A DNA stretch of 32,944 nucleotides from an uncultured Flavobacteriales bacterium (lineage in GTDB: Bacteria; Bacteroidota; Bacteroidia; Flavobacteriales; BACL11), in NCBI GenBank assembly GCA_913052655.1, contig CAJXFN010000001.1:1-32944 (forward strand), written 5' to 3'. Under the pieces are notes generated by a model. It saw only the letters and a program-made list of their open reading frames with translations. It was not told where the DNA came from and did no database searches. Below are positions 8,423 through 32,944 of the stretch, piece by piece. The stretch's first letter is position 1. Each line of letters begins with the position of its first letter. A program made the translations under genes and the position numbers.

Positions 8423-8462
8423 AATACAAGTTATTAGTTAATAAATAAGGTTAATTATATAT

Positions 8463-19900: not shown

Positions 19901-20550
19901 CTAGTTGCTTTGGAGAATGTGATGGAACAGCTAGTACAACAATTTCTGGTGGAACGGGCACCTACTCAGAAGATTGGGGAGGACTAGATCCAAATAATTT
20001 ATGTGCTGGATTAGTAAATGTTATTGTAGAAGATGATAATAACTGTTTAGCAACAAACTCTGTTTTAATAACTGAACCTAATCCTGTAATAGTAATAATT
20101 TCAGCAAATGGCATCAGTCTTGAAGCTACTCAAGGGTTCCTATCCTATCAATGGTTAGATGGTAATGGGTCAAATATCATAGGAGCTACCTCCCAAAGTT
20201 TCACTCCAAATAATGGAGGAATATACTCCGTTGAAGTAACAAATCAAGATGGGTGTGTTGGAGTTTCAAATTCTATAAACTTTGTTATCGAATCTGTAAA
20301 TTCCGAAAATAATATCTTTACTATTTATCCAAATCCAACATCAGATTGGATTACTCTTGAAACAAATACAAATATTGATTCGGATATTAAGATAATCAAT
20401 ATCTTTGGAGAGATTATTTATACTATATCAAGTAATGATTTACTAGATAATTTTGAAAAAATTAACCTTGGAAAAATTTCTAAGGGAATGTATATTGTTC
20501 AACTTATTAACAATAACACTATTATTAACCGAAGAATCATTGTGCAATAA
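13957..20550 (+). CDS. 2197-aa SprB-repeat surface protein with T9SS type-A C-terminal sorting domain
   Basis: ORF track. Signal peptide MKKSLLSLIIIFSGILSFAQ|H. An N-terminal FN3-like domain follows (ADLDWDD...NFKYRV...LSPNTSYDWTVKC). Then about two dozen ~75-aa repeats of the SprB type (C.G..DGS....isGG..PY...W........L.aGtY...vtD.nGC......i.eP); this count is an estimate, not exact. An unknown ~150-aa domain lies at about aa 180-330. A GEVED-like insert and a C-terminal CTD complete the protein. Confidence 0.95.
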   Translation: MKKSLLSLIIIFSGILSFAQHPTNLISSNITSNSADLDWDDAVCSGNVNFKYRVTGSGSNWIQTNNVTSIYSLSGLSPNTSYDWTVKCVGNSGWANNATFITSNNCNLTSSVSVTDASCNNTLDGSATLSVSNGFSPYIFNWDNGTTTQNLNGVSSGTYVVQISDNSGCTTSDTAIIGSIGTQSINQQLTQFSPNPITAYHQWSYDTLRITNTGCDVRIRPEFTINCSNGPIQQGDIVLKWQNPLGFNQNINYNIDANGNAYGFWSFTSGDSSGTDVTFGQIQDVVIQVKFVNPAQFGTYSATWETYKVDNLGNKLGLLAGPNTVSLTLIDCSSLTIDGFSSTNPNCVGGTDGTININNISNGSGNFSFNWSNGSSQANISGLSAGTYTLTVTDNNTGCIAVDSVTITDPSPLSGTLTGTNITCNGLSDGTLSAIASGGSSVYKYTWNPSIGQNANINNLSAGTYDLTIIDLVCNNNISGLSFTITEPDLLTSTSFNSNNTSCDTSICNGTFGIILSGGTTPYTYTWTNGDTVNSQSNLCAGSFSITATDANSCNIFTENVIVYDSSFTPSTLLTSTNISCFGLNDGNAEAIISSGSNTSGGNISTLAYCSSSPGSNLYNTIDVVNLNGDGDAINNNTSGSCDTYEDYSSQYTTLSPGTTYTLSIDLGTCNSGNFFYPDSTGVFIDWNIDGDFDDINEKIGVFYSDIPTTHNINITVPNIAYGPTRMRIVSQIQSTNPSFPSSPVNPCLVGTYGQNGTYIQPWFGTTEDYSLVINGTIPATYLWNTGDTTSSISNLIAGTYYCEVTDTNNCTSIDTVTIVEPSLISSSENITNVSCNGLLDGSAILTISGGTPGYTADWGTNNPNALSAGTYNYSITDTNGCNYNDSITITEPNELSINSITTNVLCNGDTTGSIDITISGGVSSYSFLWSNGITTEDLSNALAGTYYLQVTDANSCILLDTFVITEPSFITVFSTTTDATCNGFSDGSASLTISGGTPGYSEDWGTNNPNALSAGTYNYSITDNNSCVYTNSVLINEPNIISTVNFITNVSCNGLSDGSASITISGGTPGYSQDWGTNNPNSLSAGTYNYTITDTNGCNYNDSVTITEPQILNATYSKTNVSCNGFIDGSALVNITGGTTNYVLSWDTLNYPLLGGINVFSTPIGVPAGVYPFGIIDDNGCTFTDTITITEPDSISVSQTTTNVSCNGLSDGSVTLIISGGTPGYSEDWGTNNPNSLSAGTYNYTITDTNGCNYNNVVTITEPIILSSTINATDLTSCLVSNGSIDLNVSGGTSPYVYLWNNSDTTEDLTNLSAGNYSVTITDNNGCTTTNNTTVGQPSNGLSLSLSSTTYNGYEVSCNGGSNGNITTTAVGGLGSLSFVWSNGDTTQNLSNLSAGSYSVTMTDSVGCSLFDNITLNQPTEISSYFVTSDVLCNGDSTGTASVTFNGGVTDYLLSWTGYNYPLPNGLNTFITPIGVPAGIYPYSVTDNNGCMHFDTITINQPNAISSSYTITNYNGYNVSCNGANDASIDLQWTGGTSPYQNWFDGSTTTDTIQSNLSAGTYIDSLVDANGCSYSQSITINEPSALSLNLIPTNLSCYNSCDGRILTQINGGVSSYTFSWSDGSSLDSNTNLCSGMYNVTVTDDNGCIISDSIFLTQPNDIIINIDSIFDVSIYNGNDGEIYITPSGGILNYSYYWTGPNGFNSTNEDITGLQSGTYTITVTDSTNCSSSYSIYVDQLSSLSINLDTIINLSCFEECNGQILITADGGDSVYTYLWIGPNGFSSTDEDLDSLCAGNYELILSDSTSSVSTTFTVSQPSQLQIITNADTALCYGGLAQASAFSFGGQNPYVTSWDIGSSSITTYLNAGTHYVNVIDANGCSSTDSVLIVQNDSISISSTETDISCYGLSDGSVQIDVLSGGLPPFEYSENNGQNFQTSNIFNGLSSGTSTYIVRDANGCTNSISASIAEPNELIVSLNASSASCFGECDGTASTTISGGTGTYSEDWGGLDPNNLCAGLVNVIVEDDNNCLATNSVLITEPNPVIVIISANGISLEATQGFLSYQWLDGNGSNIIGATSQSFTPNNGGIYSVEVTNQDGCVGVSNSINFVIESVNSENNIFTIYPNPTSDWITLETNTNIDSDIKIINIFGEIIYTISSNDLLDNFEKINLGKISKGMYIVQLINNNTIINRRIIVQ
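15766..16284 (+). other. GEVED-like domain inserted in the SprB-repeat array
   Basis: The region reads ...CDTYEDYSSQYTTLSPGTTYTLSIDLGTC...GVFIDWNIDGDFDD...GPTRMRIV...PWFGTTEDYSLVING. The paired xxEDY motifs and the DWN.DGDF loop are typical of the GEVED domain found in T9SS cargo. Confidence 0.6.
16285..20080 (+). repeat. Main uninterrupted SprB-type repeat array (roughly 16-17 units, coding)
   Basis: CNG[LF]SDGS...ISGGT.(P)Y...W motifs recur about every 225 nt. Several units are near-identical at the nucleotide level (see findings). Confidence 0.85.
20311..20547 (+). other. T9SS (Por) type-A C-terminal sorting domain of the 2197-aa protein
   Basis: NIFTIYPNPTSDWITLETN...IKIINIFGEIIYTIS...INLGKISKGMYIVQLINNN...RRIIVQ. 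Confidence 0.85.
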
Positions 20551-20601: not shown

Positions 20602-22206
20602 ATGTTCAAGAAAATAATTAAATTAAATTTACTACTAGCAACTTCATTTTTCTTAATGACAAGTTTAATTTACGCAAATTCAACTTTAGATAGTTTAAAC
20701 AGGTCAGATAACTTAAAAGCTTTTGACTGGGAAGTAATCTCTGGAGTAGAAAAACTAGTTCCAAACAAAGATATGTCTAAGAATTCAATAAAGAAATTAG
20801 AGGAAGCGAATTTACTCTATTCTAAGGGAGTAGAATTAATGCGTTCTAAAAATTATTCTGGAGCTATTGAACAATTTATGCTTGCTAGAAAAAGCTATAA
20901 AAGAGCAAAAATCACTCCAAATGATTATAATTATATTAACATAAATCAGGCTTTATGTTACGCAAATTCTGGAAAAGAAAAAGATTTTGCTGTAGCTAGT
21001 AGATATCTAAGTTTGGTTACAAACAAAATTGAAAAAGAAAAAGAATGGCTCTATAATCTATCGATTGCTTATAACCTTATTGGAGATCACACTTCTGCAA
21101 CTTCTAATTTGAGTAAAGCAATTAGATTAGACATCAATTATTTTCAAGCTTATATTACTTTAGAAGCAATTTATAGAAATACAAATAATAAAAATAATGC
21201 AGATAAGGTAAGAGATCGAATGGAAACTGCTGAAGCTAAATTGATAAAAAAGGAACAAAAAAATTCTAAAAAAGAACCTAATTCTAAAAAAACAAAAGAT
21301 GTCTTCACAATTGAAGGAGTTCAACCAGATGTAACAATCTTGAAAATTGTAAAAAATGATGATAATTTACAATTTAACAAAGTATCTCAGATTAAAGAAA
21401 GATCCATGACATTAGTTCAAGAAGGAATAGGTTCATATAATAATGGTGTAAAAGAGTTAAGTAACGGTAACTATGAAAGAGCTATTGAAGAGTTAAAAAT
21501 TGCTGAGAAAAAATTAAAAAGAGGAAAGATAAAAAATCATGGATTAAATTTTTCTAGAGCACAATTAACTATTGCCTACTTATGTACTGAGGAGAAAAAT
21601 AAATTAGGACAAGTAAAAAGAAATCTTAGAAATATTTCTAACAAACTTTACGAAACTAGAGATTGGACCTATAATATGGCAGTTGCAAACTACACTTATG
21701 GGGTAAGAACAGTTAGAGGAGATAAATCTACTGATAAATGGAAATCTAAAGCAAAACAATCTTCATTTATAAAAGATGCGATTAAATTATTTAAATTAAC
21801 TATAAAACACGATAAACTTTATTTAAACCCTTACCAAAACCTAGTATACTTGTACCAGGAACTTGGAGACATAAATAAGGCTGAAAAATATCAGAAATTA
21901 TATAACAAAAGAAGAGATGAGTTAATTCGTTCATTTGACAGAGAGGAACAAATAAAAATGGGAGTTGCGAATGAATATGTATTTAGAGTAAATCTTGGAA
22001 CTTATGGAGAGTATGAAGCTCCAGCTGATATGTTTGATGAAGAATATCTTATTACAGTTCCTATAAATGAAAGAATGAGCGCATACCTAGCTGGAATGTA
22101 TTACAGTTTAGATGATGCTATTGCATACCAAAAGGAGATGATTAAAAAAGGTTATACTGAAGCATTTATAGTCGCATATAAAGATGGGGATAAAATTGAT
22201 TTTTAA
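20602..22206 (+). CDS. Secreted/periplasmic TPR-repeat protein with C-terminal SPOR-like domain
   Basis: ORF track. Signal peptide MFKKIIKLNLLLATSFFLMTSLIYA|N. Two internally duplicated TPR-like halves (…KNYSGAIEQFMLARKSYKRAKI… and …GNYERAIEELKIAEKKLKRGKI…) are joined by a Lys-rich linker (KKEQKNSKKEPNSKKTKD). The C-terminal ~75 aa (YVFRVNLGTYGEYEAPADMF...YLAGMYYSLDDAIAYQKEMIKKGYTEAFIVAYKDG) fits the SPOR peptidoglycan-binding fold pattern. Confidence 0.8.
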   Translation: MFKKIIKLNLLLATSFFLMTSLIYANSTLDSLNRSDNLKAFDWEVISGVEKLVPNKDMSKNSIKKLEEANLLYSKGVELMRSKNYSGAIEQFMLARKSYKRAKITPNDYNYININQALCYANSGKEKDFAVASRYLSLVTNKIEKEKEWLYNLSIAYNLIGDHTSATSNLSKAIRLDINYFQAYITLEAIYRNTNNKNNADKVRDRMETAEAKLIKKEQKNSKKEPNSKKTKDVFTIEGVQPDVTILKIVKNDDNLQFNKVSQIKERSMTLVQEGIGSYNNGVKELSNGNYERAIEELKIAEKKLKRGKIKNHGLNFSRAQLTIAYLCTEEKNKLGQVKRNLRNISNKLYETRDWTYNMAVANYTYGVRTVRGDKSTDKWKSKAKQSSFIKDAIKLFKLTIKHDKLYLNPYQNLVYLYQELGDINKAEKYQKLYNKRRDELIRSFDREEQIKMGVANEYVFRVNLGTYGEYEAPADMFDEEYLITVPINERMSAYLAGMYYSLDDAIAYQKEMIKKGYTEAFIVAYKDGDKIDF

Positions 22207-23285
22207 ATCATAGATTTTAGGAAATCTTCATACTCTTTTAAAACTTTTCCCCAAGAATATTGATTTTTTATTTTTTCTATATTATTAGATGTAAATAAAT
22301 CTCTCTCTGTCAAATTTTCTCTATTAAGTAATGATGTTATACATTTATTACAATTAAAGTAAAAAGCATCATTTTCTAGTATGGCTTTATTGAACTCATT
22401 ATTATGTGCACAAATTAAAGAGGAAGAACTCATTGCTTCTAACAAAGATGGATTTGTTCCACCAACTGTATGTCCATGAAAATATAAATAAGAATTTTTT
22501 CTAAGAACATTTAACTTTTCAAGTTCAGAAATATACCCTAAATAAACTATTCTATCATCATTAAACTTATTTTTAATCATCTCTCCGTATCTATTTTCTG
22601 TATTACCAATTACTAAAAATTTTCTATCAGTATCAGAATTTAAAAAACCCTCTAAGATTGTTTCTATACTATTCTCTGGTTCCATTCTTGCAATGATCAT
22701 ACTATAAGATCGTTTCTCTAAATTAAGATGAGCTAAAATAGAATCGTCAGTGCTAGAAATTAAATTTGCTCCATAAGGGATATACTTAGAATCTACAGAA
22801 TATTTATCTTGTAAATACGATTGAATTCCAGTTGAATCTGAAATAAGATAATCACTAGATTTTACCGCTAATCTTTCGGCAAACAATAAAAACTTCTGAA
22901 CTGGTTTAGAATATTTACTTCTTTTCCATTCTAAACCATCCATATTTGTTACAATTTTAGGTTTTTTTGGTAATAACCAATTCCAGATACTTGAAGATGT
23001 ATATCCTAATTGTAGTATTACATCAAAATCTCTTTTTCTAGAATCTATAATACAATTTAAATCATAAATAAACTGACCTACTGTCCCAATAATATATTCA
23101 GGATCTTTACAATGTATAATTTTTACTCCATTCCATTCTAGCTCTTGATAAATATGATTGTGAGAATTATAAACATAAACCTCATGGCCCTTCTTGACAA
23201 ACTGCTCAGATAAATATTGAGCAAATTGCTCAAATCCACCATAATAATTAGGCACTCCTCTAGTTCCTAAAACTGCTAATTTCAT
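22203..23285 (-). CDS. Glycosyltransferase, GT4 family with DUF1972-type N-terminal domain
   Basis: The N-terminus MKLAVLGTRGVPNYYGGFEQFAQYLSEQFVKKGHEVYVY matches the DUF1972 signature (iiGtRGiP..YGGFEtf...L...GheV.Vy). The C-terminal half is GT1/GT4-like (FHGHTVGGTNPSLLEAM). It is the last gene of the operon. Confidence 0.85.
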   Translation of the reverse strand: MKLAVLGTRGVPNYYGGFEQFAQYLSEQFVKKGHEVYVYNSHNHIYQELEWNGVKIIHCKDPEYIIGTVGQFIYDLNCIIDSRKRDFDVILQLGYTSSSIWNWLLPKKPKIVTNMDGLEWKRSKYSKPVQKFLLFAERLAVKSSDYLISDSTGIQSYLQDKYSVDSKYIPYGANLISSTDDSILAHLNLEKRSYSMIIARMEPENSIETILEGFLNSDTDRKFLVIGNTENRYGEMIKNKFNDDRIVYLGYISELEKLNVLRKNSYLYFHGHTVGGTNPSLLEAMSSSSLICAHNNEFNKAILENDAFYFNCNKCITSLLNRENLTERDLFTSNNIEKIKNQYSWGKVLKEYEDFLKSMI

Positions 23286-25135
23286 TAATCCTGAGGTTTA
23301 TATCCATTTACATTTTTTAGTAGAAGATCTTTTATTAAAGAATCATTTTGATTATCTCTAAGATCAGAAATTTCTTTTACCATCTTTTCAATAATATTTA
23401 AAGGAAGTTTTTCTTCTCTGGCTTGCATTATTCTTGGATGTTCAGATTGTATTACATCATCACCAATAAGCAATTCTTCATAAAGCTTTTCTCCAGGTCT
23501 CAATCCTGTAAACTTTACTTTTATATCTCCATCAGGGTTTGTGGTATCAATTGGCTTTAATCCACTTAAATGAATCATTCTGTAAGCTAAATCTAAAATT
23601 TTAATCGGATCTCCCATATCTAAAACAAACACATCACCCCCTTTTGCCATAGCTCCTGCTTGCAACACTAGTTGTACTGCTTCAGGAATTGACATAAAAT
23701 ATCTAGTGATATTTCTATGAGTTACAGTAACAGGACCTCCATTTTTTATCTGACTACGAAAAAGAGGAACAACAGATCCTGCTGAATCCAATACATTTCC
23801 AAATCTAACCATAGAAAAACAGGTAGAACTTATTTCTTCAGCATAAGCTTGCAAAATTAGTTCTGAAAATCTTTTAGAAGCACCCATGACATTAGTAGGT
23901 CTGACCGCCTTATCTGTACTAATTAAAATCATGTTTTCAACTTTGTTTTCTTTCGCAGATTTTGCTACATTATATGTTCCAATAACATTATTATAAACAC
24001 CTTCTGATATATTCATTTCTACCATTGGAACATGTTTATATGCCGCTGCATGATAAATAGTATCAATATTATAACTTGAGATAACCTGATTTACATGTTG
24101 GGAATTAGTTACTGTTGCAAGTTTTGGTATTATTTCTGCTCTCTTCTTACTCCTTAAAAGTTCTTGGTGAACTGAGTACAAATTATATTCTGAGTTCTCT
24201 AATAGAACAATCTTTTTTGGACTTAACTCTAAAATCTGTCTACACAACTCTGAACCAATACTTCCTCCAGCTCCCGTAACTAAAACATTTTTTCCTTTTA
24301 TATTCTTCTTTAACAAACTTTCTTGCGGAGATACAGGAGTTCTTCCTAATATATCTTCAACTTGAACATGTTTTATACTATCAATCGTTACCTCTCCGTT
24401 TACAATACTATCAACTGAGGGTAAGACTTTTACCTCTATTGGGAATTTAGAAAGTTTTTCTATAATCTCTTTTCTTCTATTTTGTGTGATAGAAGGCATA
24501 GCTAATAATATTAATTTAGCATCAAACTTCTTAATTACTTTATCTAATTTTGAAAATGAAAAAATCTGAATAAAATTTATAATAGTACCATGTTTTTGTT
24601 TATCATCATCTATAAATGCAACCGGAGCATAATCCATACTTTTCTTCAAACTTTCAACTATTTGCACACCTACACTTCCAGCTCCATATACAATGATCTG
24701 TTTTCTTTTATTAACTTGAGTATCCCAAGAATACATAAATCCTTTTAGTAAAAATCTAGAAGTAATAATAAAGGTATTTGACACAAACCAAAAAATTGGC
24801 ATAATAGATCTTGGCAAATCATCTTCTTGAAAAAAATACATGAAAAATGTAATAACAAAACACGCAATAGTTGTTGCTTTAAAAGAAGTAGTTATTACTT
24901 TAATCCCTGTATATTGTAAAACAGAACGATATAATCCTAATTTAATAAATAGAGGTGTCGCAACAATAGGAATAAGTATAAATAGCCAAAAATTCTCATT
25001 CAGATATGAATTCCAAGGTTCACCAAAACGAAGAGCAAATGATAACCATAATGAGAAAATTAAAATAACTATATCAAAACTTAATGTAATTATCTGCTTG
25101 TATATTCTATTTAATGTAAGTAATCTACTTTTCAA
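23285..25135 (-). CDS. Membrane-anchored UDP-GlcNAc 4,6-dehydratase, PglF/CapD/WbpM family
   Basis: There are four N-terminal TM segments. The Rossmann motif is VLVTGAGGSIGSELCRQI. The catalytic region ISTDKAVRPTNVMGASKR carries the M-x-x-x-K variant typical of PglF/FlaA1-type dehydratases. Confidence 0.9.
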   Translation of the reverse strand: MKSRLLTLNRIYKQIITLSFDIVILIFSLWLSFALRFGEPWNSYLNENFWLFILIPIVATPLFIKLGLYRSVLQYTGIKVITTSFKATTIACFVITFFMYFFQEDDLPRSIMPIFWFVSNTFIITSRFLLKGFMYSWDTQVNKRKQIIVYGAGSVGVQIVESLKKSMDYAPVAFIDDDKQKHGTIINFIQIFSFSKLDKVIKKFDAKLILLAMPSITQNRRKEIIEKLSKFPIEVKVLPSVDSIVNGEVTIDSIKHVQVEDILGRTPVSPQESLLKKNIKGKNVLVTGAGGSIGSELCRQILELSPKKIVLLENSEYNLYSVHQELLRSKKRAEIIPKLATVTNSQHVNQVISSYNIDTIYHAAAYKHVPMVEMNISEGVYNNVIGTYNVAKSAKENKVENMILISTDKAVRPTNVMGASKRFSELILQAYAEEISSTCFSMVRFGNVLDSAGSVVPLFRSQIKNGGPVTVTHRNITRYFMSIPEAVQLVLQAGAMAKGGDVFVLDMGDPIKILDLAYRMIHLSGLKPIDTTNPDGDIKVKFTGLRPGEKLYEELLIGDDVIQSEHPRIMQAREEKLPLNIIEKMVKEISDLRDNQNDSLIKDLLLKNVNGYKPQD

Positions 25136-26255
25136 AAGATCTTTTTATATTGGTAATTATTCTTCTTAAATCAGTTTCTGTCATATTAGAACCCGAAGGT
25201 AAACATAATCCATATTTAAACAAATATTCTGCATTATTAGTACCATAATACTTACATGAAGAAAAAATAGGTTGTAAGTGCATTGGTTTCCAAAGAGGTC
25301 GAGACTCTATATTATCAAATTGTAGATTCAATCTTAAATCCTCCCTACTCACTTTTGAATCTTCTGAAAGAAGAATTGTCGTTAACCATCTATTAGAATA
25401 AAAACCATTAGGCTCATCCACAAATGATATTTCTTTAATATCTGATAGTTCTTTCTTATAATAATCAAATATTTCCCTTCTTTTTTCCACTCTTTCCTGT
25501 AAAACTTCTAACTGTCCTAATCCGATTGCCGCCGAAACATTACTTAACCTGTAATTATAACCTATATGAGAATGTTCATAATGAGGAGCATTATCTCTAG
25601 CTTGTGTAGCTAAAAACTTTGCCTTTTTTATAGAATCTTCATTAGAAGAAATTAGAGCCCCACCTCCAGAGGTTGTTATTATTTTATTTCCATTAAAAGA
25701 ATAAACTCCAAACTCTGTTAAAGTGCCTAGGGGTTGATTAAAATAATTAGAGCCAAGCCCTTCTGCAGCATCTTCAATAATAGGAATATTATACTTTCTT
25801 GCAACTGCTATTATTTCATTCATCTTTGCCGGCATTCCATATAAATGAACTATAACAATTACTTTTGGCTTGATTCCGTTTTGTAACCTATCTCTGATAG
25901 CTATTTCTAAAGATTCGGGGCACATATTCCAAGTATCTATCTCTGAATCAATAAAAACAGGTGTAGCTCCTTGATAAACTATAGGATTTGCAGAAGCAGA
26001 AAATGTAAAGGAAGAACAAATCACCTCATCATTTCTTTCTACCCCTAATAAAATTAATGCTAGATGTATAGCTGAAGTTCCAGATCCAAGAGCAGCTACA
26101 TGTTTATTATCAGAAATCTTAGATAAATTTGTTTCAAAGTCATTTAAATGAGGACCCACGGGAGCAATCCAATTTAAATCAAATGCTTCTGTAACATATT
26201 TAAATTCATTATCTCCCATATGAGGAGACGATAACCATATTTTTTTGTTTTCCAT
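25125..26255 (-). CDS. PLP-dependent sugar aminotransferase, DegT/DnrJ/EryC1 family, PglE-like (UDP-4-keto-6-deoxy-GlcNAc C4 transaminase)
   Basis: Family motifs run throughout: LSSPHMGDNEFKYVTEAF..NWIAPVGP, the PLP-lysine region YSFNGNKIITTSGGGALIS, HYEHSHIGYNYRLSNVSAAIGLGQLEVL, SNRWLTT, ESRPLWKPMH and GLCLPSGSNMT. As far as I recall the C. jejuni PglE sequence, the resemblance is close. Confidence 0.9.
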   Translation of the reverse strand: MENKKIWLSSPHMGDNEFKYVTEAFDLNWIAPVGPHLNDFETNLSKISDNKHVAALGSGTSAIHLALILLGVERNDEVICSSFTFSASANPIVYQGATPVFIDSEIDTWNMCPESLEIAIRDRLQNGIKPKVIVIVHLYGMPAKMNEIIAVARKYNIPIIEDAAEGLGSNYFNQPLGTLTEFGVYSFNGNKIITTSGGGALISSNEDSIKKAKFLATQARDNAPHYEHSHIGYNYRLSNVSAAIGLGQLEVLQERVEKRREIFDYYKKELSDIKEISFVDEPNGFYSNRWLTTILLSEDSKVSREDLRLNLQFDNIESRPLWKPMHLQPIFSSCKYYGTNNAEYLFKYGLCLPSGSNMTETDLRRIITNIKRSFEK

Positions 26256-26843
26256 TTAATATGATGTTCTAAATATTGTTGCAAAGATAATTTTAATGTC
26301 TAACCAAAGGGACTGATTTTCATAATAATCTAAATTCAGTTTTACTTTATCAGGGAAAATAACCTCATCATTATATTTTTGAGGATTATCCTTAGTAGCT
26401 AAAATCTCTTCTTCATTTGCATATTTTAAACTTGCAGTTCCAGTTACACCTGGTCTGAGTTTAAGAACATTTCTATCTTTTCCCACTAATTTATCTGCAT
26501 ACCCAGGAACATCAGGTCTTGGACCTACTAAGCTCATTTCACCTTTTATAACATTCCACAGTTCAGGCAATTCATCTAATTTATATTTTCTTAAGAATAC
26601 TCCTATTTTAGTTATTCTTACATCTCCAAGAACAGTAGCAGTACTGTTTGATTCTTGTTGTACTGTCATGGACCTAAACTTTATCAAAGTAAAAAGTTTA
26701 CCATCCTTCCCTACTCTCTTTTGACAGAATAACACTGGACCAGATGAACTAATCTTAATGGCAATAGAAATTAGTATCAATACAGGCATTAACAGAATAA
26801 GTCCTATTAAAGAAGAACAAAAATCAAATAATCTTTTTGTCAT
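26256..26843 (-). CDS. Small monotopic phosphoglycosyl transferase (initiating sugar-phosphate transferase), PglC/WcfS-like
   Basis: It is 195 aa with a single N-terminal re-entrant helix (LIGLILLMPVLILISIAI). It carries the bacterial sugar transferase motifs KFRSM and LDELPELWNVIKGEMSLVGPRP. Confidence 0.9.
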   Translation of the reverse strand: MTKRLFDFCSSLIGLILLMPVLILISIAIKISSSGPVLFCQKRVGKDGKLFTLIKFRSMTVQQESNSTATVLGDVRITKIGVFLRKYKLDELPELWNVIKGEMSLVGPRPDVPGYADKLVGKDRNVLKLRPGVTGTASLKYANEEEILATKDNPQKYNDEVIFPDKVKLNLDYYENQSLWLDIKIIFATIFRTSY

Positions 26844-27596
26844 CTATATTCTTTTTTTAATAGCATTATAAACGTAACTAACAAAACATATTGTACTATA
26901 CAACAAATTTAATTTTTCTATTGTTCTATACACACCCCAAACCTCTTTTGCAGCTTTCCACTTTTTAGAGGTATTTGAAGTTGATACAATTCTATAATAT
27001 GCTAAGTTTTCATTTAAACCATAAGCAGTAAAGCCTCTCTTCATTATTAATAACCAAAGCGCCATATCATGAGAAGATCTAATATTTGGCATATAAAAAT
27101 CTCCAGTTTTTTCTCTGTCAATTATAACAGTCAAGCAACCAATAATTGTATTTTTTAAATAAGAGTGGTAATCAATTTCTTTAGGAGCTACTATTTTAGA
27201 ATATTTTTCCACTCCATTTTCGGAAATAGGCTGGTATGAGGTAAAAGAAAATGCAACATCATTTTTACTCATAAATTTTAGTTGCTTTTCTAACTTATTT
27301 TTCTTCCATAAATCATCTGAATCTAGAAATGCAATGTATTTTCCTTTTGATTCTTTGATCGCAATATTTCTAGCTTTTGCAGCTCCAACATTCTCTTCCA
27401 AAAGAATTACTTTGATACGATTATTCTTTTTAGCATATTTTGTAACTACCTGAATTGAATCATCTGTAGAACAATCGTCTACAATAATCATTTCCCAGTC
27501 TTTATATGTTTGAGAAGTAACAGAATTAATACACTCTTCAATAAATTTTGAAGAGTTATAAGAAGGAGTAATAATAGAAACTAAATTATTTTTCAT
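26844..27596 (-). CDS. Glycosyltransferase family 2
   Basis: VSIITPSYNSSKFIEECINSVTSQTYKDWEMIIVDDCSTDDS plus the DSDD (DXD) motif are a classic GT2 (GT-A) N-terminus. Confidence 0.9.
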   Translation of the reverse strand: MKNNLVSIITPSYNSSKFIEECINSVTSQTYKDWEMIIVDDCSTDDSIQVVTKYAKKNNRIKVILLEENVGAAKARNIAIKESKGKYIAFLDSDDLWKKNKLEKQLKFMSKNDVAFSFTSYQPISENGVEKYSKIVAPKEIDYHSYLKNTIIGCLTVIIDREKTGDFYMPNIRSSHDMALWLLIMKRGFTAYGLNENLAYYRIVSTSNTSKKWKAAKEVWGVYRTIEKLNLLYSTICFVSYVYNAIKKRI

Positions 27597-28515
27597 CTAA
27601 CATTGATTTTATTTTCTTTGCGTCCTCATCATCTGTTTTCTGAATTATATTATAGTTAAATGAAGTAGGGATATTATCTAAATTTAAATTTAAATCAATA
27701 TCATGTTTTTTAACAAATTCCTTCACATCTTTCAGAAATTGATGAGGATTACAGCATATCTCCTCATATCTAACTACCAAAGTATCTTTTTCTGAAATTG
27801 AAGTTTCTATATTTTTTTGTACAGTTTTAAATTGCCAAAATGTTTTATCAATAACATCTAGATCTTTCCTTTCCTTCCATCCCTTTGGTTTTACAGACAT
27901 CCATTCAAATTCTATTCTATTTTTATCAAACTCTCTATATGTTTTCACCATTGAATATATGTTTGACAACTCATCTCTCTTCAAATAAATAAAAACACTA
28001 CCCGGAAAAAAATTTCGTAGGAATCTAATTGAAAAAACATGTCCTAGATACCCACTAATCAGTGGTTTTTTATTATTTACTAAAGTTGAAAAAACTGACT
28101 GTATATATTTTATTCGATTCTCAGCTATTGTATTTCTAGTTTGTTCCAAACCTTGGCCTATCCAATAGCTCCAGAATTTCATTCCCTCGGATTCTCCTGA
28201 AACACCCGACACTAATCCTATATCAGATTTAAAATCATTATTTTTATAGGAATCATTTACCTTCTTACCACCAAAAAGAGGTAAAGCATACAATAAATTC
28301 CAGAAATTTGAAATATATAAACTTTTAGTACCTCTATTTAAAATCTGATAAGTAAGAGTAGAACCACTTCTTGGGGTAGCAACTAAAAAAATGATTGGAA
28401 ATTTATCTCTTCTCTTTTTCTTGAAAAAGAACTCTATCCAAGTTAAAAACAAAGGTGGTATAGCTTGAAAAAATCTAGCTGTTTTAAGTAATATTGGATT
28501 AGTTCCTTGTCTCAC
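27586..28515 (-). CDS. Sulfotransferase family protein (Sulfotransfer_3-like)
   Basis: The 5'-PSB loop is VATPRSGSTLTYQIL. The 3'-PB-like motif is YLKRDELSNIYS. The C-terminal region VVRYEEICCNPHQFLKDVKEFV is typical of bacterial PAPS-dependent sulfotransferases. Confidence 0.75.
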   Translation of the reverse strand: MRQGTNPILLKTARFFQAIPPLFLTWIEFFFKKKRRDKFPIIFLVATPRSGSTLTYQILNRGTKSLYISNFWNLLYALPLFGGKKVNDSYKNNDFKSDIGLVSGVSGESEGMKFWSYWIGQGLEQTRNTIAENRIKYIQSVFSTLVNNKKPLISGYLGHVFSIRFLRNFFPGSVFIYLKRDELSNIYSMVKTYREFDKNRIEFEWMSVKPKGWKERKDLDVIDKTFWQFKTVQKNIETSISEKDTLVVRYEEICCNPHQFLKDVKEFVKKHDIDLNLNLDNIPTSFNYNIIQKTDDEDAKKIKSMLDEK

Positions 28516-29311
28516 AACTTCTTCTAATAAATTCTTGATTTAACAATATATTTAGTTTTACAATGAGTCCAAAACTAAATATTGAAAGGATATGTCTTAA
28601 TGGGTATAATATTTGTATTAATAACTTAATCTTCTTACTATAGTGAATATGTAAATTGCAATAGGCTTTTCTAAAACAGAATTTCTCAATAAGAAAGTCT
28701 TGTATATTAGTTTTATGAGATATACTTCTAGCTCCATCATTCACATATTTAAATTCTTTTTCATTTAAATAATACTGATTCATTGTATAAAACAATGCAT
28801 AACTAGGGTAAAACTTTAAATAGTTTGGATGAAACTTTATTGTTGAATAATCACAATAGTTATTAATTATCTTATTTTGACTATATCCTATCATTAGAGA
28901 CCCCTTATAGATAGCCCAGAAATCCCAATTCCCTTTTAAATTTTCAATCTCAAATTTAAACTCAGATTCAGATTTTGGCACTAAATGGGTATTATAATTA
29001 TTAAAAGCAGAAACATATGAATAAAATCCTTTATTTATTATTTCTTTCTTTTCAACTTTTTTCACCTTACAATGTTTCAGTCCTCTTCTAATCTTACTTC
29101 TGGTATTTCTACTATAGTCCTGCAAATCCATTATTCTATCACAAATAACATACCAAAATTCTGTTTTTTTCTCTTGATCAAAATTTGAAACCCAACGCGC
29201 AAAAAAAGCGTTATGAGACTGAATCTGATTATCGATATCATGTATATCAATATCTTCATGTGGTAGACACTTAGGTATAATCGCTCCATTATATTTTCTC
29301 CAAGAACTCAC
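28499..29311 (-). CDS. FemAB / Acetyltransf_6-like (GNAT-fold) acyl- or aminoacyl-transferase, putative
   Basis: I recognise no strong named motif. The basic segment SRNTRSKIRRGLKHCKVKKVEK resembles the conserved k.R.niRkaek.gv element of FemABX/BioF2-like transferases. A second-half pattern follows (WDFWAIYKGSLMIGYSQN...YDYSTIKF...YPSYALFY...DGARS). The assignment is tentative. Confidence 0.5.
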   Translation of the reverse strand: MSSWRKYNGAIIPKCLPHEDIDIHDIDNQIQSHNAFFARWVSNFDQEKKTEFWYVICDRIMDLQDYSRNTRSKIRRGLKHCKVKKVEKKEIINKGFYSYVSAFNNYNTHLVPKSESEFKFEIENLKGNWDFWAIYKGSLMIGYSQNKIINNYCDYSTIKFHPNYLKFYPSYALFYTMNQYYLNEKEFKYVNDGARSISHKTNIQDFLIEKFCFRKAYCNLHIHYSKKIKLLIQILYPLRHILSIFSFGLIVKLNILLNQEFIRRSCETRN

Positions 29312-30106
29312 TTATTCTATACTAAATAAATTTCTTCTCAATCTAAAAGTAATATAATACAAAAATTTAAAAACTAATGATGTATTAAATTTATCAATTC
29401 TACTAATATCATTTAATTTCCTATTAGAGAAGAACTTCTTATAATTATCAATATTTCCCTCCCTCAATAATTTAACCCTACCCTTTTTTACCGTAGAATA
29501 ATATTTAGTTTTACCTCTAGCTATGTCATCTCTCATATTGGCAATAGAGGTTTTTTCTTTAATTACTAACAGTTCATCATCTGTTAAAGGATTTAACTTT
29601 AAAACTTTAGCGATTCTTTGTGCAGATTTATCAAAATCCGTCTTTAAATCAGAAAAATGAATGAAATTTTCCTTATTAAAAGCTTCTTTATATTTCTGAT
29701 TAAACAATACAATCTCATAAGATTTCAATCTTCCAATTGTCCAATAATAGACACTGAAGTTTCTTATAAACGAATATTTATTTTTTAAATGAAAGAAATG
29801 AGAAACAATAGAATCTTTAATATTTCTTTCTGAAAAAAGGAATACTACTGAATCAGGATACTTTCTGTTAATAGTATTGTTCTTAAAAAAATGAGATTTA
29901 TTTATATAATAATTATTGTCATAATCTTCATTTACTAAGAATTCCCAGAATTTACTTTCAATAATAGGTGTAGGAGAATCTATATTATTAGTATATCGCT
30001 CATCTATCTCTGAGGGTATAATATTTCTAGATTTTAAAATTTCTATAGTAATAGCATGAAGCCAACTTGACCCCGATTTAAAAACTCCATTACATATAAT
30101 TAACAT
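29312..30106 (-). CDS. Sulfotransferase (Sulfotransfer_1-like)
   Basis: The 5'-PSB loop is GVFKSGSSWLH (cf. PKSGTTW). The 3'-PB motif is SERNIKDSIVSHFFH (R..D..vS). The C-terminal LLREGNIDNYKKFFS resembles RKG..GDWKN.FT. It is not paralogous to the other sulfotransferase. Confidence 0.75.
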   Translation of the reverse strand: MLIICNGVFKSGSSWLHAITIEILKSRNIIPSEIDERYTNNIDSPTPIIESKFWEFLVNEDYDNNYYINKSHFFKNNTINRKYPDSVVFLFSERNIKDSIVSHFFHLKNKYSFIRNFSVYYWTIGRLKSYEIVLFNQKYKEAFNKENFIHFSDLKTDFDKSAQRIAKVLKLNPLTDDELLVIKEKTSIANMRDDIARGKTKYYSTVKKGRVKLLREGNIDNYKKFFSNRKLNDISRIDKFNTSLVFKFLYYITFRLRRNLFSIE

Positions 30107-30110
30107 CTTA

Positions 30111-31112
30111 TTAAATTAAAAACATTCTTGAACTACTAAAAACTAACACAGGTACACTGAAAGTTATCAGCAAAAATAATCTAAAAATCATTCTATTACC
30201 ATAATTGGTAATTGAATTTGAGTATCTATATAAATCAAAGAGAAAAAAGACGAGAAACATCATACCTAATCTTTCTGAAATCATGTCATATTTCAAAGTA
30301 GCTAATCCTGTCATTAACAGAATAATAATGATTAAAGAAGGGGTCTTTTTGAATAAATCGATAATATTAAACTTAAATTTTATTAGATAAAGAATAAATG
30401 AAGATAAGAACATAAATAAATATATCATACTCATATCAACACCTGTTGACCTAGCTGACTTAAACTGAGAAGCATAATTAAATAAGAAAACAAATAAGAG
30501 CGATATTGTGAGAGAAATCAATATTCTGAAATAAATATTAAATCTTAATAATTTATTAATTGCAAAAATTGGCAATAATATTATAGATGTATTATGAATA
30601 AAAATAGAAATTATATAAAAGAAAATAGATCTTGAATAACTGATCTTTATAATTGAATACGCATACAAAGAAAATATTGTAGCAAATAATTGTCTATAAA
30701 TATTTTCATAACCAAAAAACAATGGAAAACTAGTGGATAACACTACAATAAGTCCTACGGATAGTTTATTAGTAATTACAGATTCTTTTGATAAATTAAT
30801 AGAAGCTCTAATTAAAGTTATTATCCAAATAAGATCCATGAAAAGAAATACAGCTATTTCATTATTAAGAATACTATAAAAAAATCTTAAACTATACCAA
30901 AATACAAATTCCCTTAAATAATATAAATTATTTCCTGTAGATGACATCTCTTTAGCATACGTAATCATATCTGTATCAAAACCTGAAGTTCTTACCACTA
31001 CCATAAAAACAAGGAGACAAGGAATATAAAACAACCACATTACATATTTATTCTCAGAAAGTATTGTAATTACTCCTATTAGGATTAATAATATATAGAA
31101 GGATAATTCCAT
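30111..31112 (-). CDS. EpsG-family / Wzy-like polytopic membrane protein (putative glycan polymerase), copy 2
   Basis: It is 333 aa with about 10 hydrophobic segments. Its size and topology are typical of EpsG/O-antigen polymerases. It is clearly paralogous to the adjacent 331-aa ORF; shared blocks are listed under that entry. Confidence 0.65.
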   Translation of the reverse strand: MELSFYILLILIGVITILSENKYVMWLFYIPCLLVFMVVVRTSGFDTDMITYAKEMSSTGNNLYYLREFVFWYSLRFFYSILNNEIAVFLFMDLIWIITLIRASINLSKESVITNKLSVGLIVVLSTSFPLFFGYENIYRQLFATIFSLYAYSIIKISYSRSIFFYIISIFIHNTSIILLPIFAINKLLRFNIYFRILISLTISLLFVFLFNYASQFKSARSTGVDMSMIYLFMFLSSFILYLIKFKFNIIDLFKKTPSLIIIILLMTGLATLKYDMISERLGMMFLVFFLFDLYRYSNSITNYGNRMIFRLFLLITFSVPVLVFSSSRMFLI

Positions 31113-32108
31113 TTAAATTAAAAATTGTTTTGAACTATCAAAAAAAAGTGTTGGTAATGTAAATAATAACATTAAAGATAATCGAACTAACGCTCTTATG
31201 CTTTTTATTCTTATCTCAGACGAGTATAAATAAAGATCATATGTAAGAAAACAAATAAACATCATTCCAAGCCTTTCAGCCACCATATCTACATTTAAGC
31301 TTACAAGTCCTGTCATCAAAACCACAATAAATAACAATGAAGGAACTTTTTCAAAAAGATTATAAATATTTTTCCTGAAAACTAATAATCCTATTAACAA
31401 AAGCATAACAAATATCAACAAATAGAATACTCCCATATTTAAACCTGTCTGTTCTGCTGATTTTAGATTTGATAAGATACTTAAGCTAGCAACAAATAAT
31501 AATGAAACAATTAGTGAGATCTGTATTCTGTCAGAAAAATTGAACTTATAAAATCTTTTAATAAAAAATAATGGCAGTAATAGAGCAACAATATTATGCA
31601 TGAAAAATGAAATGACAAATATACAGATAGAACTATAATATTTCTTTTCTATTAAAGAGTAGGAGTAAAGAGAAAAAACAGTAGCATAAAATTGTCTATA
31701 TATATTTTCGTAACCAAATACAAATGGAAATGATGTAAGTAACACAAGTAATAATGCATTATTAATATTTTCCTTATTATTTTTCGACATTCTATTACCT
31801 GTTCTTATCATTACAAGGATCCATATAAGATCCATAAACAAAAATGAATAAAGTTCATCTTGAATCACAAAATAAACAAATCTACTTCCGAACCAAAAAA
31901 TAAATTCTCTTAGATAATATAGATCCATTCCAGTAGCATGCATTTGTCTAGCATAATCTATTATATCAGTATCAAACCCTTCGTTTCTAACGATATATAG
32001 AAAACAAAATGTGAATGGAATAAATATCCACTTAAAAAGCCTTCTGCTTTCCGTCAATATTGTTACTGTAGACAAAAAAATCAAAAATATGTAAGCAGAT
32101 AATTCCAA
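31113..32108 (-). CDS. EpsG-family / Wzy-like polytopic membrane protein (putative glycan polymerase), copy 1
   Basis: It is 331 aa and a paralog of 30111-31112, about half the residues identical by eye. Shared blocks are GFDTD.I.YA..M..TG..LYYLREF.FW, FLFMDLIWI, TSFP..FGYENIYRQ..AT.FSLY.YS, PSL..I.LMTGL and ERLGMMF. It abuts both neighbours with no intergenic bases. Confidence 0.65.
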   Translation of the reverse strand: MELSAYIFLIFLSTVTILTESRRLFKWIFIPFTFCFLYIVRNEGFDTDIIDYARQMHATGMDLYYLREFIFWFGSRFVYFVIQDELYSFLFMDLIWILVMIRTGNRMSKNNKENINNALLLVLLTSFPFVFGYENIYRQFYATVFSLYSYSLIEKKYYSSICIFVISFFMHNIVALLLPLFFIKRFYKFNFSDRIQISLIVSLLFVASLSILSNLKSAEQTGLNMGVFYLLIFVMLLLIGLLVFRKNIYNLFEKVPSLLFIVVLMTGLVSLNVDMVAERLGMMFICFLTYDLYLYSSEIRIKSIRALVRLSLMLLFTLPTLFFDSSKQFLI

Positions 32109-32944
32109 TTACTTGTTATTTTTTAAATAATAATTATAGGAAAATATAGATAAAATCAAAGTTACTATAGTAGTAGAATATATCATTATTAGAGATTCTG
32201 TAATTACCGAATGATGCATTATAATAGAATAAATAAAACCAAATACAATAGATAAAATAAATATAATTGAAATATTTCTTCTGACTTTTCTACTAGATTC
32301 AATAGGTAAAGAGAAAAATGGCTGAAATAGAGTGGTTGAAATAAAGATTAAAACAAAAGCATAGCTTAAATCTTGAATAAAAAGAGTTGTATTTTGCACA
32401 TCTTTTAAGTTAAATTCACCCCTCATGTAAACCAACTTTATTAACTCAAAACCATAGAATTCTAAACAAAATACTAAACTCACGCCCACAAAAACAGATA
32501 TTAACAAAGAGTAAAACATAAAAATACTATTTTTTCTTATAGAAACCTTTCTAAGAAGAAGAGTGCTAATATTTCCGATAATTGCGGTTAACATGGCGTT
32601 TAGTATAAAAACCGAATAAGTATAATATGTAATAGATATTCCACCATCAGAACCAGATACAAGACGAGATGAAATAATAATGATATTTGCAAAATTCCCT
32701 AATATTAAAGTTGGGATATTTAAATCTCTTCTAGATATCGGGATTTCATATCCATCTGTCTTTTTATTCATAGGAATTATGTAAGCAATTGTTAATGAAA
32801 GAATTCCTATTAATCTACTTATCACTAAACCAAATACATTAAAAAACAAGGTTAATGGATATATAAAAACTGCAACTAAGAAAGAATTGAGAGTTGTTGC
32901 TAATGAATATGAATAGAATTTTGCTTCAGCCTGCATTATTGTTA
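32109..32944 (-). CDS. Wzx/MurJ-like (MOP superfamily) flippase, C-terminal part; probably N-terminally truncated by the window edge
   Basis: The visible 275 aa are polytopic membrane sequence. The frame stays open beyond the Met at 32936 to the window end (32937-32942 read Thr-Ile), and flippases of this type are usually 400-500 aa. The position upstream of polymerase-like genes fits a Wzx/Wzy-dependent locus. Confidence 0.55.
   Translation of the reverse strand, partial: TIMQAEAKFYSYSLATTLNSFLVAVFIYPLTLFFNVFGLVISRLIGILSLTIAYIIPMNKKTDGYEIPISRRDLNIPTLILGNFANIIIISSRLVSGSDGGISITYYTYSVFILNAMLTAIIGNISTLLLRKVSIRKNSIFMFYSLLISVFVGVSLVFCLEFYGFELIKLVYMRGEFNLKDVQNTTLFIQDLSYAFVLIFISTTLFQPFFSLPIESSRKVRRNISIIFILSIVFGFIYSIIMHHSVITESLIMIYSTTIVTLILSIFSYNYYLKNNK

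Follow-up and report, generated by a model that had tools for sequence, protein, structure and literature searches.

Sulfotransferase genes are already known from bacterial polysaccharide clusters, and Fem-like enzymes are known to aminoacylate an amino sugar (Orf11) and, as established by genetics, a glycan precursor (VimA). Here, we describe a locus in which genes of these two kinds lie side by side. The DNA analyzed, hereafter the window, is a stretch of 32,944 nucleotides (positions 1 to 32,944 of contig CAJXFN010000001.1, assembly GCA_913052655.1, forward strand) from an uncultured Flavobacteriales bacterium of the BACL11 lineage; between its positions 27,586 and 30,106, genes for two predicted sulfotransferases that use 3'-phosphoadenosine-5'-phosphosulfate (PAPS), here called ST-B and ST-A, flank a gene that we call FEM and that belongs to an unannotated family with a predicted FemX-type fold.

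VimA, of the Wbp/Vim linking-sugar pathway of Porphyromonas gingivalis and Tannerella forsythia, belongs like FEM to the GNAT/Fem-like proteins and serves a glycan pathway of Bacteroidota in which a DegT aminotransferase is also needed; it sets whether serine or glycine is amide-linked to the sugar amine (PMC7468200). FEM differs from it in not matching the VimA-type model TIGR03019 significantly and in residing at a locus without the VimE deacetylase. The acceptor of VimA is a 2,3-diamino uronic acid, whereas the one that we propose for FEM is a 4-amino-4,6-dideoxy-N-acetylhexosamine, and VimA, unlike FEM, has no known sulfotransferase partner. The best structural matches of FEM are found elsewhere, among FemX of the FemABX family (PF02388) and the group of Orf11, Sba18, and Sbb17, with a comparable size of 285 vs. 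270 amino acids (aa). Of these, Orf11 is a FemX-like relative of Sba18 and Sbb17 that transfers glycine from Gly-tRNA to the amino sugar streptothrisamine, and Lys305 is a key residue of FemX (PMC12945691). FEM departs from all of them in lacking significant sequence similarity and in having a first GNAT lobe of only ~57 residues; moreover, the acceptors of FemX- and Orf11-type enzymes are peptidoglycan or an antibiotic, whereas that proposed for FEM is a glycan precursor.

The surrounding genes recall other pathways. With the PglF-PglE-PglD-PglC route to N,N'-diacetylbacillosamine and with WcfR/WcfS of Bacteroides fragilis polysaccharide A, which provide 2-acetamido-4-amino-2,4,6-trideoxygalactose (AATGal), the window shares the trio of dehydratase, DegT protein, and small phosphoglycosyl transferase (PGT), by family only. 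It differs from the Pgl route in having no left-handed beta-helix PglD, whose place is taken by a FemX-fold protein that may or may not be accompanied by a capping enzyme. The clusters of synechan (xss), Vibrio sp. KMM 8419, and Cobetia marina also carry sulfotransferase genes among their polysaccharide genes (PMC11641403). They differ from the window in that its sulfotransferases are coupled to a FemX-fold transferase, with those of relatives even fused to it, and in that the window has no PAPS genes. Our literature searches found no paper on this FemX-fold family, on its near-obligate link to PglF, DegT, and PGT genes, or on its coupling or fusion to sulfotransferases.

Results

A FemX-fold family beside a predicted amino-sugar cassette

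FEM has 338 relatives in a database clustered at 90% identity, every one of them labeled "hypothetical," and a full profile search returned 1330 clusters (50% identity), likewise all "hypothetical," at E<=1e-3 and 518 at E<=1e-30. Scanning one genome per species gave 80 FEM loci, distributed over Flavobacteriales, Bacteroidales, Campylobacterota (Sulfurovum, Sulfuricurvum), Desulfobacterota, and Pseudomonadota (Marinobacter, Polaromonas), and further over Chlorobium (Chlorobiota), Spirochaetota, Planctomycetota, Verrucomicrobiota, and others; a tblastn search with FEM against the PLSDB plasmids gave no match. Sixty-six of the species loci extend at least 3 kb downstream of FEM, and among these a PGT gene is present in 61 and a DegT gene in 58, mostly within 6 kb and on the same strand. 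Outside Flavobacteriales, FEM is usually preceded by a GT4 gene. There are, in addition, fusions of the family with a WecA-type PGT (PGT-FEM, P0139) and with LicD (LicD-FEM, P0124). Given the linkage to PGT and DegT and the fusions to PGT and LicD, we tie FEM to the initiating amino sugar of the glycan and consider this sugar its probable site of action.

A cassette of a 4,6-dehydratase, a 4-aminotransferase, and a small PGT is classic for a 2-acetamido-4-amino-2,4,6-trideoxyhexose of the bacillosamine or AATGal type, as exemplified by PglF/PglE/PglC and WcfR/WcfS. Judged by enzyme family, the first sugar at our locus would be the UDP-activated form of such a trideoxyhexose. No left-handed beta-helix acetyltransferase of the PglD type was found in the window or in loci L001 to L004. 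The FEM module is tied to a PglF/DegT/small-PGT cassette that is predicted to make a 4-amino sugar and has no such enzyme. Comparison across the many phyla shows FEM to be the conserved core of the module rather than an incidental neighbor.

Exchangeable and fused partners

A sulfotransferase adjoins FEM or is fused to it in 31 of the 80 species loci. By placement, there are 16 cases of a Sulfotransfer_3-type domain downstream, 10 of a Sulfotransfer_1-type domain downstream, and 8 of a Sulfotransfer_1-type gene upstream. Directly after FEM, at least five phyla carry orthologues of ST-A (30-34% identity along the whole protein), and the layout of the window, with Sulfotransfer_1 upstream and Sulfotransfer_3 downstream, is also seen in L009, L010, and L014. 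In some genomes, the two activities are encoded by a single open reading frame (ORF): FEM::Sulfotransfer_3 fusions are present in four species (L009, L010, L014, L023) and in P0122, and FEM::Sulfotransfer_1 fusions in another four (L012, L018, L026, L027) and in P0126. Such fusions are also shared by metagenomic clusters, the largest of which, that of P0126, has 92 members; a look-up of the clusters returned uncultured organisms throughout and no informative name. The fused Sulfotransfer_3 domain is only a remote relative of ST-A, and we therefore believe that sulfotransferases of three or more lineages were recruited independently of each other. We also considered that the fusions might be assembly artefacts and rejected this, as they are seen in eight species-level genomes and in the 92-member metagenomic cluster.

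Sulfotransferases are only one kind of partner. A small GNAT protein accompanies FEM as a separate gene in 10 loci and is fused to it in P0158, P0191, P0204, P0209, and P0232, while a methyltransferase using S-adenosylmethionine is the partner in L037. FEM is joined to an ATP-grasp domain in a Planctomycetales metagenome-assembled genome (MAG; L074, 9707-11875, 722 aa), and a tandem FEM-FEM protein, followed by a small GNAT, is encoded in L011 (10001-11620, 539 aa), its second FEM being full (hhalign E 2e-85). The partners of FEM, sulfotransferases included, thus appear to be swapped or fused from genome to genome, and in every case the partner next to FEM is an enzyme acting on a nucleophile. 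Whether the reaction is acetylation, methylation, sulfation, ATP-grasp ligation, or a second Fem-type transfer, it requires a newly provided amine or hydroxyl, which an aminoacyl group supplies and an acetyl group does not; the pattern of partners therefore favors aminoacyl over acetyl as the group installed by FEM. In keeping with this, N-acetyl-alanyl, N-acetyl-glycyl, and N-(3-hydroxybutyryl)-alanyl groups have been found on the 3- and 4-amino-6-deoxy sugars of O-antigens (PMC3210612).

The supply of activated sulfate is encoded next to the module in one case. In a Marinobacter MAG (L054, 8645-19685, plus strand), a single strand carries genes for a GT4 protein, FEM, an ST-A-like sulfotransferase, a PGT, a DegT protein, a 320-aa DHH-family protein, CysD, CysN, CysC, and a DASS anion symporter. 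CysD, CysN, and CysC each score above their NCBIfam cut-offs and the DHH-family protein is possibly a pAp phosphatase, such that next to the FEM/sulfotransferase pair the locus would have everything needed for sulfate activation. PAPS genes clustered together with sulfotransferase genes are taken as the hallmark of a pathway to sulfated polysaccharides (PMC11641403), and the arrangement in L054 supports real sulfation.

A different neighbor is seen upstream of FEM in some Flavobacteriales loci (L003, 9267-9998, and its relatives L017, L021, L025, and L032), where a conserved protein of ~245 aa without a Pfam or NCBIfam match stands in the place of ST-B. It is a further variable and unannotated component of the cassette.

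Fold of FEM

FEM matched nothing in Pfam or NCBIfam, and the NCBIfam search of its relatives likewise gave no family; a search with the TIGR03019 (VimA/pepcterm_femAB) model left FEM without a match and found one of 36 relatives at E 0.022. Against the PDB, the single sequence found nothing and profile searches gave only marginal matches to the GNAT proteins PaiA and RimI (E 0.005-0.014). The confident AlphaFold2 (AF2) model (pLDDT 91.9, pTM 0.85) has a full GNAT domain at the C terminus and, ahead of it, an N-terminal lobe of reduced size; this is a double-GNAT, FemX-like fold with a truncated first half. In a Foldseek search against the PDB, ranks 1-8 were occupied by FemX of Weissella (FemX_Wv) and by Sba18/Sbb17 (E 3e-8 to 1e-6, TM-scores by query length [TMq] 0.54-0.59). 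FemX itself (7z6a) was the top match (E 3e-8, TMq 0.58), and Sba18/Sbb17, whose structures were solved with the amino sugar streptothrisamine, gave TMq 0.57-0.59 (0.59 for 9wqy). Next in rank were the domains of aminoacyl-phosphatidylglycerol synthases; the tandem GNAT VipF, which uses coenzyme A (CoA), scored lower (TMq 0.44), and 3frm was also among the matches. A preliminary description of this DNA, made from the sequence alone, had tentatively called the 270-aa product FemAB-like: at the level of fold the call stands, with FemX, Sba18/Sbb17, and the aminoacyl-phosphatidylglycerol synthase domains behind it, and at the level of sequence profiles, where no model matched, it is not supported.

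GNAT enzymes hold the pyrophosphate of CoA with motif A, Q/R-x-x-G-x-G/A, in the loop between beta4 and alpha3, and this motif is not conserved in FEM. Placed by the PaiA and RimI alignments, the position reads Y-L-K-x-Y-P-S-Y, or more generally Y-L-K-x-Y-x-S-Y, with no glycine. The basic isoelectric point of FEM (9.4) was considered as a sign of tRNA binding and discarded, as nearly every protein of this AT-rich operon is basic.

Two sulfotransferases of different subfamilies

The assignment of both flanking ORFs as sulfotransferases, made in the preliminary description, holds by profile and motif, and for ST-A also by fold. Both pass curated Pfam thresholds: ST-A matches Sulfotransfer_3 (PF13469) with 47 bits (cut-off 27) and Sulfotransfer_1 (PF00685) with 27.3 bits (cut-off 22), and ST-B matches Sulfotransfer_1 with 41.5 bits (cut-off 22). 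The PAPS-binding motifs quoted from the two sequences are indeed present and fall on positions invariant within each family. In ST-A, these are P48, R49, G51, S52, T53, R180, and S188 (25 homologues, down to 30% identity); the 5'-phosphosulfate loop (PxxGxT/S) and the 3'-phosphate motif (R-x7-S) are both conserved and both align to the motifs of the protein tyrosine sulfotransferases (TPST). In ST-B, the invariant residues among 14 homologues are K10, G12, S13, W15, K70-x-H72, R94...S102, and R215-x-G217, and the K-x-H catalytic dyad (K70/H72) is retained. The AF2 model of ST-A (pLDDT 87.2) was searched against the PDB with Foldseek, and the top 41 matches were all PAPS sulfotransferases or retinol dehydratase (TM 0.24-0.5), the closest folds being the polyketide sulfotransferase CurM ST, TPST1/2, Stf9, Stf1, and 3-OST.

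ST-A and ST-B are thus predicted PAPS sulfotransferases of different subfamilies. Their best Pfam families differ and the two proteins have no pairwise similarity (BLASTP E=0.73); because the pairwise alignment fails, it was accurate to speak of two unrelated sulfotransferases, at the subfamily level.

The glycan operon

The genes of the operon are listed in Table 1. Three of the minus-strand ORFs, those of ST-B, FEM, and ST-A, are closely packed: the stop of ST-B abuts the start of FEM, and the stop of FEM overlaps the GTG start of ST-A by 17 nucleotides (28499-28515), just as the preliminary description had it. The same overlap is present in the L001 orthologues, and ST-A would be translationally coupled to FEM through it. 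ST-A in turn overlaps the following GT2 gene by 11 nucleotides.

Table 1. Genes of the minus-strand operon of the window
Gene product	Position	Strand	Size and basis
Wzx-type flippase	32109..32944	-	C-terminal ~278 aa inside the window; N-terminus cut by window end
EpsG-family (Wzy-type) polymerase, paralogue 2	31113..32108	-	Pfam EpsG 31.7 bits, cut-off 30.1
EpsG-family (Wzy-type) polymerase, paralogue 1	30111..31112	-	Pfam EpsG 45.8 bits
ST-B, predicted Sulfotransfer_1-type PAPS sulfotransferase	29312..30106	-	264 aa; PF00685
FEM, predicted FemX-fold (1.5-GNAT) transferase, unannotated family	28499..29311	-	270 aa; AF2 model and Foldseek
ST-A, predicted Sulfotransfer_3-type PAPS sulfotransferase	27586..28515	-	309 aa; PF13469
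GT2 glycosyltransferase, TuaG-like	26844..27596	-	PF00535 143.9 bits; NCBIfam TuaG 375 bits, below cut-off 400
Small initiating PGT, PglC/WcfS size	26256..26843	-	195 aa; PF02397 Bac_transf 206.5 bits
DegT-family sugar 4-aminotransferase, PglE/LegC-like	25125..26255	-	PF01041 317.7 bits
Membrane-anchored UDP-HexNAc 4,6-dehydratase, PglF/WbpM/CapD type	23285..25135	-	PF02719 Polysacc_synt_2 406 bits
GT4 glycosyltransferase, Cps2T-like	22203..23285	-	NCBIfam Cps2T 218 bits, below cut-off 500

The frame of the flippase is still open at base 32944, where the window ends; the protein shares 86% identity with its 425-aa counterpart in L010, and its orthologue in L003 has a weak precomputed match to MurJ. 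The dehydratase additionally carries an N-terminal CoA_binding_3 domain, and the L001 orthologue of the GT4 protein is assigned to Glycos_transf_1/DUF1972. With a flippase orthologous to those of L010 and L003, two EpsG proteins, and an initiating PGT of the Bac_transf family, the Wzx/Wzy assembly set is present, and the best explanation of the minus-strand operon (22203-32944) is that it builds a Wzx/Wzy-dependent surface glycan. The earlier claim of a Wzx/Wzy glycan operon is borne out by these genes, and its count of two glycosyltransferases and one initiating transferase was correct. The two EpsG paralogues stand in tandem and are 48% identical to one another; two Wzy-type polymerases within a single small operon are unusual, and the close relative L010 has the two as well. 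A scan of the operon for promoters and terminators gave promoter counts at the level of shuffled sequence, the promoter models being uninformative for Bacteroidota.

The closest genome, the Flavobacteriales MAG EAC33 (locus L010), shows how this operon changes. The flippase, one EpsG, GT2, PGT, DegT, dehydratase, and GT4 proteins and a nearby TPR-repeat protein are 85-92% identical between the two, whereas ST-B and FEM have dropped to 57% and 52% (window 27586-30106 vs. L010 9207-11728), and the downstream sulfotransferase of L010 is of another lineage than ST-A and is fused to FEM. Based on this fall in identity and the different, fused sulfotransferase, the ST-B/FEM/sulfotransferase cassette looks like a replaced, serotype-like variable core. 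Its G+C content, at 0.24-0.285, is lower than that of the genes for the PGT, the DegT protein, and the dehydratase (about 0.30-0.32), although GT2 and GT4, which are conserved, are likewise low, at 0.27-0.28.

Surroundings of the operon

Three giant ORFs occupy the left 20 kb of the window. The first (2-8437, minus strand) runs off the left end, encodes at least 2812 aa, and has MAM domains; the second (8770-13551, minus strand) encodes a 1593-aa protein with an SprB repeat and a Por_Secre_tail domain; and the third (13957-20550, plus strand) encodes a 2197-aa protein with 13 SprB repeats, GEVED and fn3 domains, and a C-terminal Por_Secre_tail domain. The latter two are predicted to be cargo of type IX secretion (T9SS) or adhesins. 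Between the SprB-like gene and the glycan operon, and convergent with the latter, lies the gene of the 534-aa TPR-repeat protein (20602-22206, plus strand), kept at 57-92% identity in related loci.

In 25 species loci, all of them Flavobacteriales (L006, L008-L013, L015, L016, L018-L020, L023-L025, L027-L029, L031, L032, L034, L043, L044, L053, and L062), the glycan locus lies directly downstream of the T9SS genes gldM-gldN. An unannotated gene of ~290 aa follows gldN in all of them, and a UDP-sugar dehydrogenase gene comes next in most. As the linkage is retained while the identity of GldN falls to 36%, the T9SS core and the glycan locus appear to have been kept together over deep divergence.

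Discussion

Our analyses identify FEM as a widespread but so far unnamed family. We are highly confident of the gene identities and folds reported here, and the sulfotransferase motifs and the linkage and fusions across phyla are observed as well; from these, we infer which sugar is made, what donates the acyl group, where sulfate is placed, and in which order the steps occur. On balance, we find it likely, by a modest measure, that FEM acylates or aminoacylates the 4-amino group of the initiating sugar and that the sulfotransferases then modify the product or the repeat unit. In such a pathway, the PglF-like dehydratase and the DegT protein would make UDP-2-acetamido-4-amino-2,4,6-trideoxyhexose, and FEM, taking the place of PglD, would acylate its free 4-amino group, the likeliest acyl being an amino acid from aminoacyl-tRNA. 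This could take place on the UDP-sugar or right after the small PGT has loaded the sugar onto undecaprenyl phosphate. ST-A would then use PAPS to sulfate the product of FEM, with the newly added acyl or aminoacyl group (a side-chain hydroxyl or the alpha-amine) as the likeliest target; the PGT, GT2, and GT4 would assemble a unit of roughly three sugars; ST-B would add a second sulfate, either on the group installed by FEM or on a sugar brought by GT2 or GT4; and Wzx and the two Wzy paralogues would export and polymerize the glycan. We infer that the glycan would be sulfated at two positions and that the genome makes PAPS.

The preference for the acyl group as the target of ST-A comes from chemistry. 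A 2,4-diamino-2,4,6-trideoxyhexose has only its C3 hydroxyl free, and chain extension normally uses that hydroxyl; because the sole free position is needed for extension, the acyl or aminoacyl group is the likelier target. Even so, sulfation of the group installed by FEM is a suggestion that we make tentatively and would lean somewhat against. As for the donor, we regard aminoacyl-tRNA as evenly poised between right and wrong.

Several observations weigh against this pathway. The identity of the sugar relies on family matches below the NCBIfam equivalog cut-offs; for the DegT protein, the best match, the LegC family, reaches 392 bits of the 420 set as cut-off. The FemABX model PF02388 matches neither FEM nor any of its 36 relatives, and hhalign comparisons of FEM profiles with FemA, FemX_Sa, and an alignment of the two gave nothing significant (E 0.07-0.36; the FemA reference was 100% identical to 1lrz and FemX_Sa was rebuilt from alignment output). 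Within these nonsignificant alignments, the best local stretches coincide with two landmarks of Fem proteins, namely the RNxRSKxRxxLK helix and the region of the F-K pair, and the invariant F213-R214 of FEM is set over the F-K pair, with the near-invariant K210 four residues upstream of R214. The counterpart of Lys305 of FemX is thus represented by two candidates, R214 and K210, placed by nonsignificant alignments. Acetyltransf_6 (PF13480, "Acetyltransferase (GNAT)") fails to match FEM but weakly matches 6 of the 36 relatives (best E 6.6e-6), and some FEM fusion proteins match it at 20-33 bits. The TM-scores to FemX are only moderate (~0.58), and the predicted fold alone would therefore not give the donor. 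Adjacency and fusion, in turn, show a shared pathway but not a shared target atom. Finally, a search for cysC and cysD that covered the window and all of the Flavobacteriales loci retrieved found neither gene.

In another account, FEM is an acyl-CoA-dependent N-acyltransferase that replaces PglD by placing acetyl or some other small acyl group on the 4-amino sugar, and the sulfotransferases, independently of it, O-sulfate ordinary hydroxyls on the remaining sugars of the repeat unit. The fold is that of a GNAT, the only sequence-level matches in the PDB are the CoA-dependent PaiA and RimI, CoA-using tandem GNATs (VipF, 3frm) are among the structural matches, and some relatives match PF13480; the locus has no other N4-acetyltransferase, and sulfated sugar hydroxyls are the known form of bacterial polysaccharide sulfation (PMC11641403). 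However, the loop that binds CoA in such enzymes is not conserved in FEM, and its best structural matches are all users of aminoacyl-tRNA. An acetyl group would, moreover, leave the second GNAT, the methyltransferase, the ATP-grasp domain, and the tandem FEM without a target, and if sulfotransferases and FEM worked on unrelated residues, it would be hard to see why two sulfotransferase families have independently become fused to FEM. We thus consider a CoA-dependent FEM rather unlikely. A more radical doubt concerns the sulfotransferase-fold proteins, which might act on a lipid, a small molecule, or some other acceptor or be inactive structural partners. The acceptor cannot be read from sequence, the nearest folds of ST-A include a polyketide sulfotransferase and protein tyrosine sulfotransferases, and the window has no PAPS genes. 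On the other hand, the genes reside with overlapping ends inside a densely packed glycan operon, in both families the residues for PAPS binding and the candidates for catalysis do not vary, the pairing or fusion with a glycan-pathway enzyme recurs, and in L054 the module is clustered with cysDNC; we consider this account very unlikely, the least probable of all.

The surroundings of the operon suggest that the glycan might instead be a surface anchor for T9SS cargo, with FEM acting like VimA and the free amine of its amino acid receiving the C terminus of the cargo from the PorU sortase. The long association with gldM-gldN would fit this, as would the position of the locus next to three giant genes for cargo that bears SprB repeats and Por_Secre_tail domains, and Bacteroidota offer a precedent in the pathway of VimA and PorR (DegT), by which the linking sugar is made (PMC7468200). 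In many Flavobacteriales loci, FEM stands without a capping enzyme, and there the amine would stay free. Against this, the module is also present in phyla that lack T9SS (Campylobacterota, Desulfobacterota, Planctomycetota, Pseudomonadota, and Chlorobiota), no relation between FEM and the VimA family could be detected, a VimE-type deacetylase is missing, and the sugar pathway is PglF/DegT, not Wbp. The sulfotransferase after FEM in the window might even block the amine, and the synteny may merely mirror conserved gene order in streamlined genomes. An anchoring role is, in our view, improbable.

Returning to acylation of the initiating sugar by FEM, its boldest form is a two-step module in which FEM would aminoacylate the 4-amino group of a bacillosamine-type sugar from aminoacyl-tRNA and a sulfotransferase would then N- or O-sulfate the amino acid. 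With acetyl, methyl, ATP-grasp, and second-FEM partners around the same core elsewhere, this would amount to a combinatorial decoration of the first sugar, and in marine Flavobacteriales, it might also serve to attach T9SS cargo. We know of no bacterial glycan, and found none in the literature searched, on which a sulfated amino acid substituent has been described, and we consider the full two-step scheme unlikely. If true, however, it would mean a widespread and unrecognized combinatorial decoration of the first sugar in surface glycans.

The FEM family is probably the missing enzyme for the N-(acyl)aminoacyl amino sugars long seen in O-antigens, and its repeated coupling to sulfation has previously gone unnoticed. 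If the donor is aminoacyl-tRNA, tRNA-dependent nonribosomal chemistry would reach beyond cell walls, lipids, and antibiotics to the repeat units of polysaccharides in many phyla. For the abundant bacteria of the ocean, surface glycans that are sulfated and decorated with amino acids shape charge, recognition by phages and grazers, and attachment to particles.

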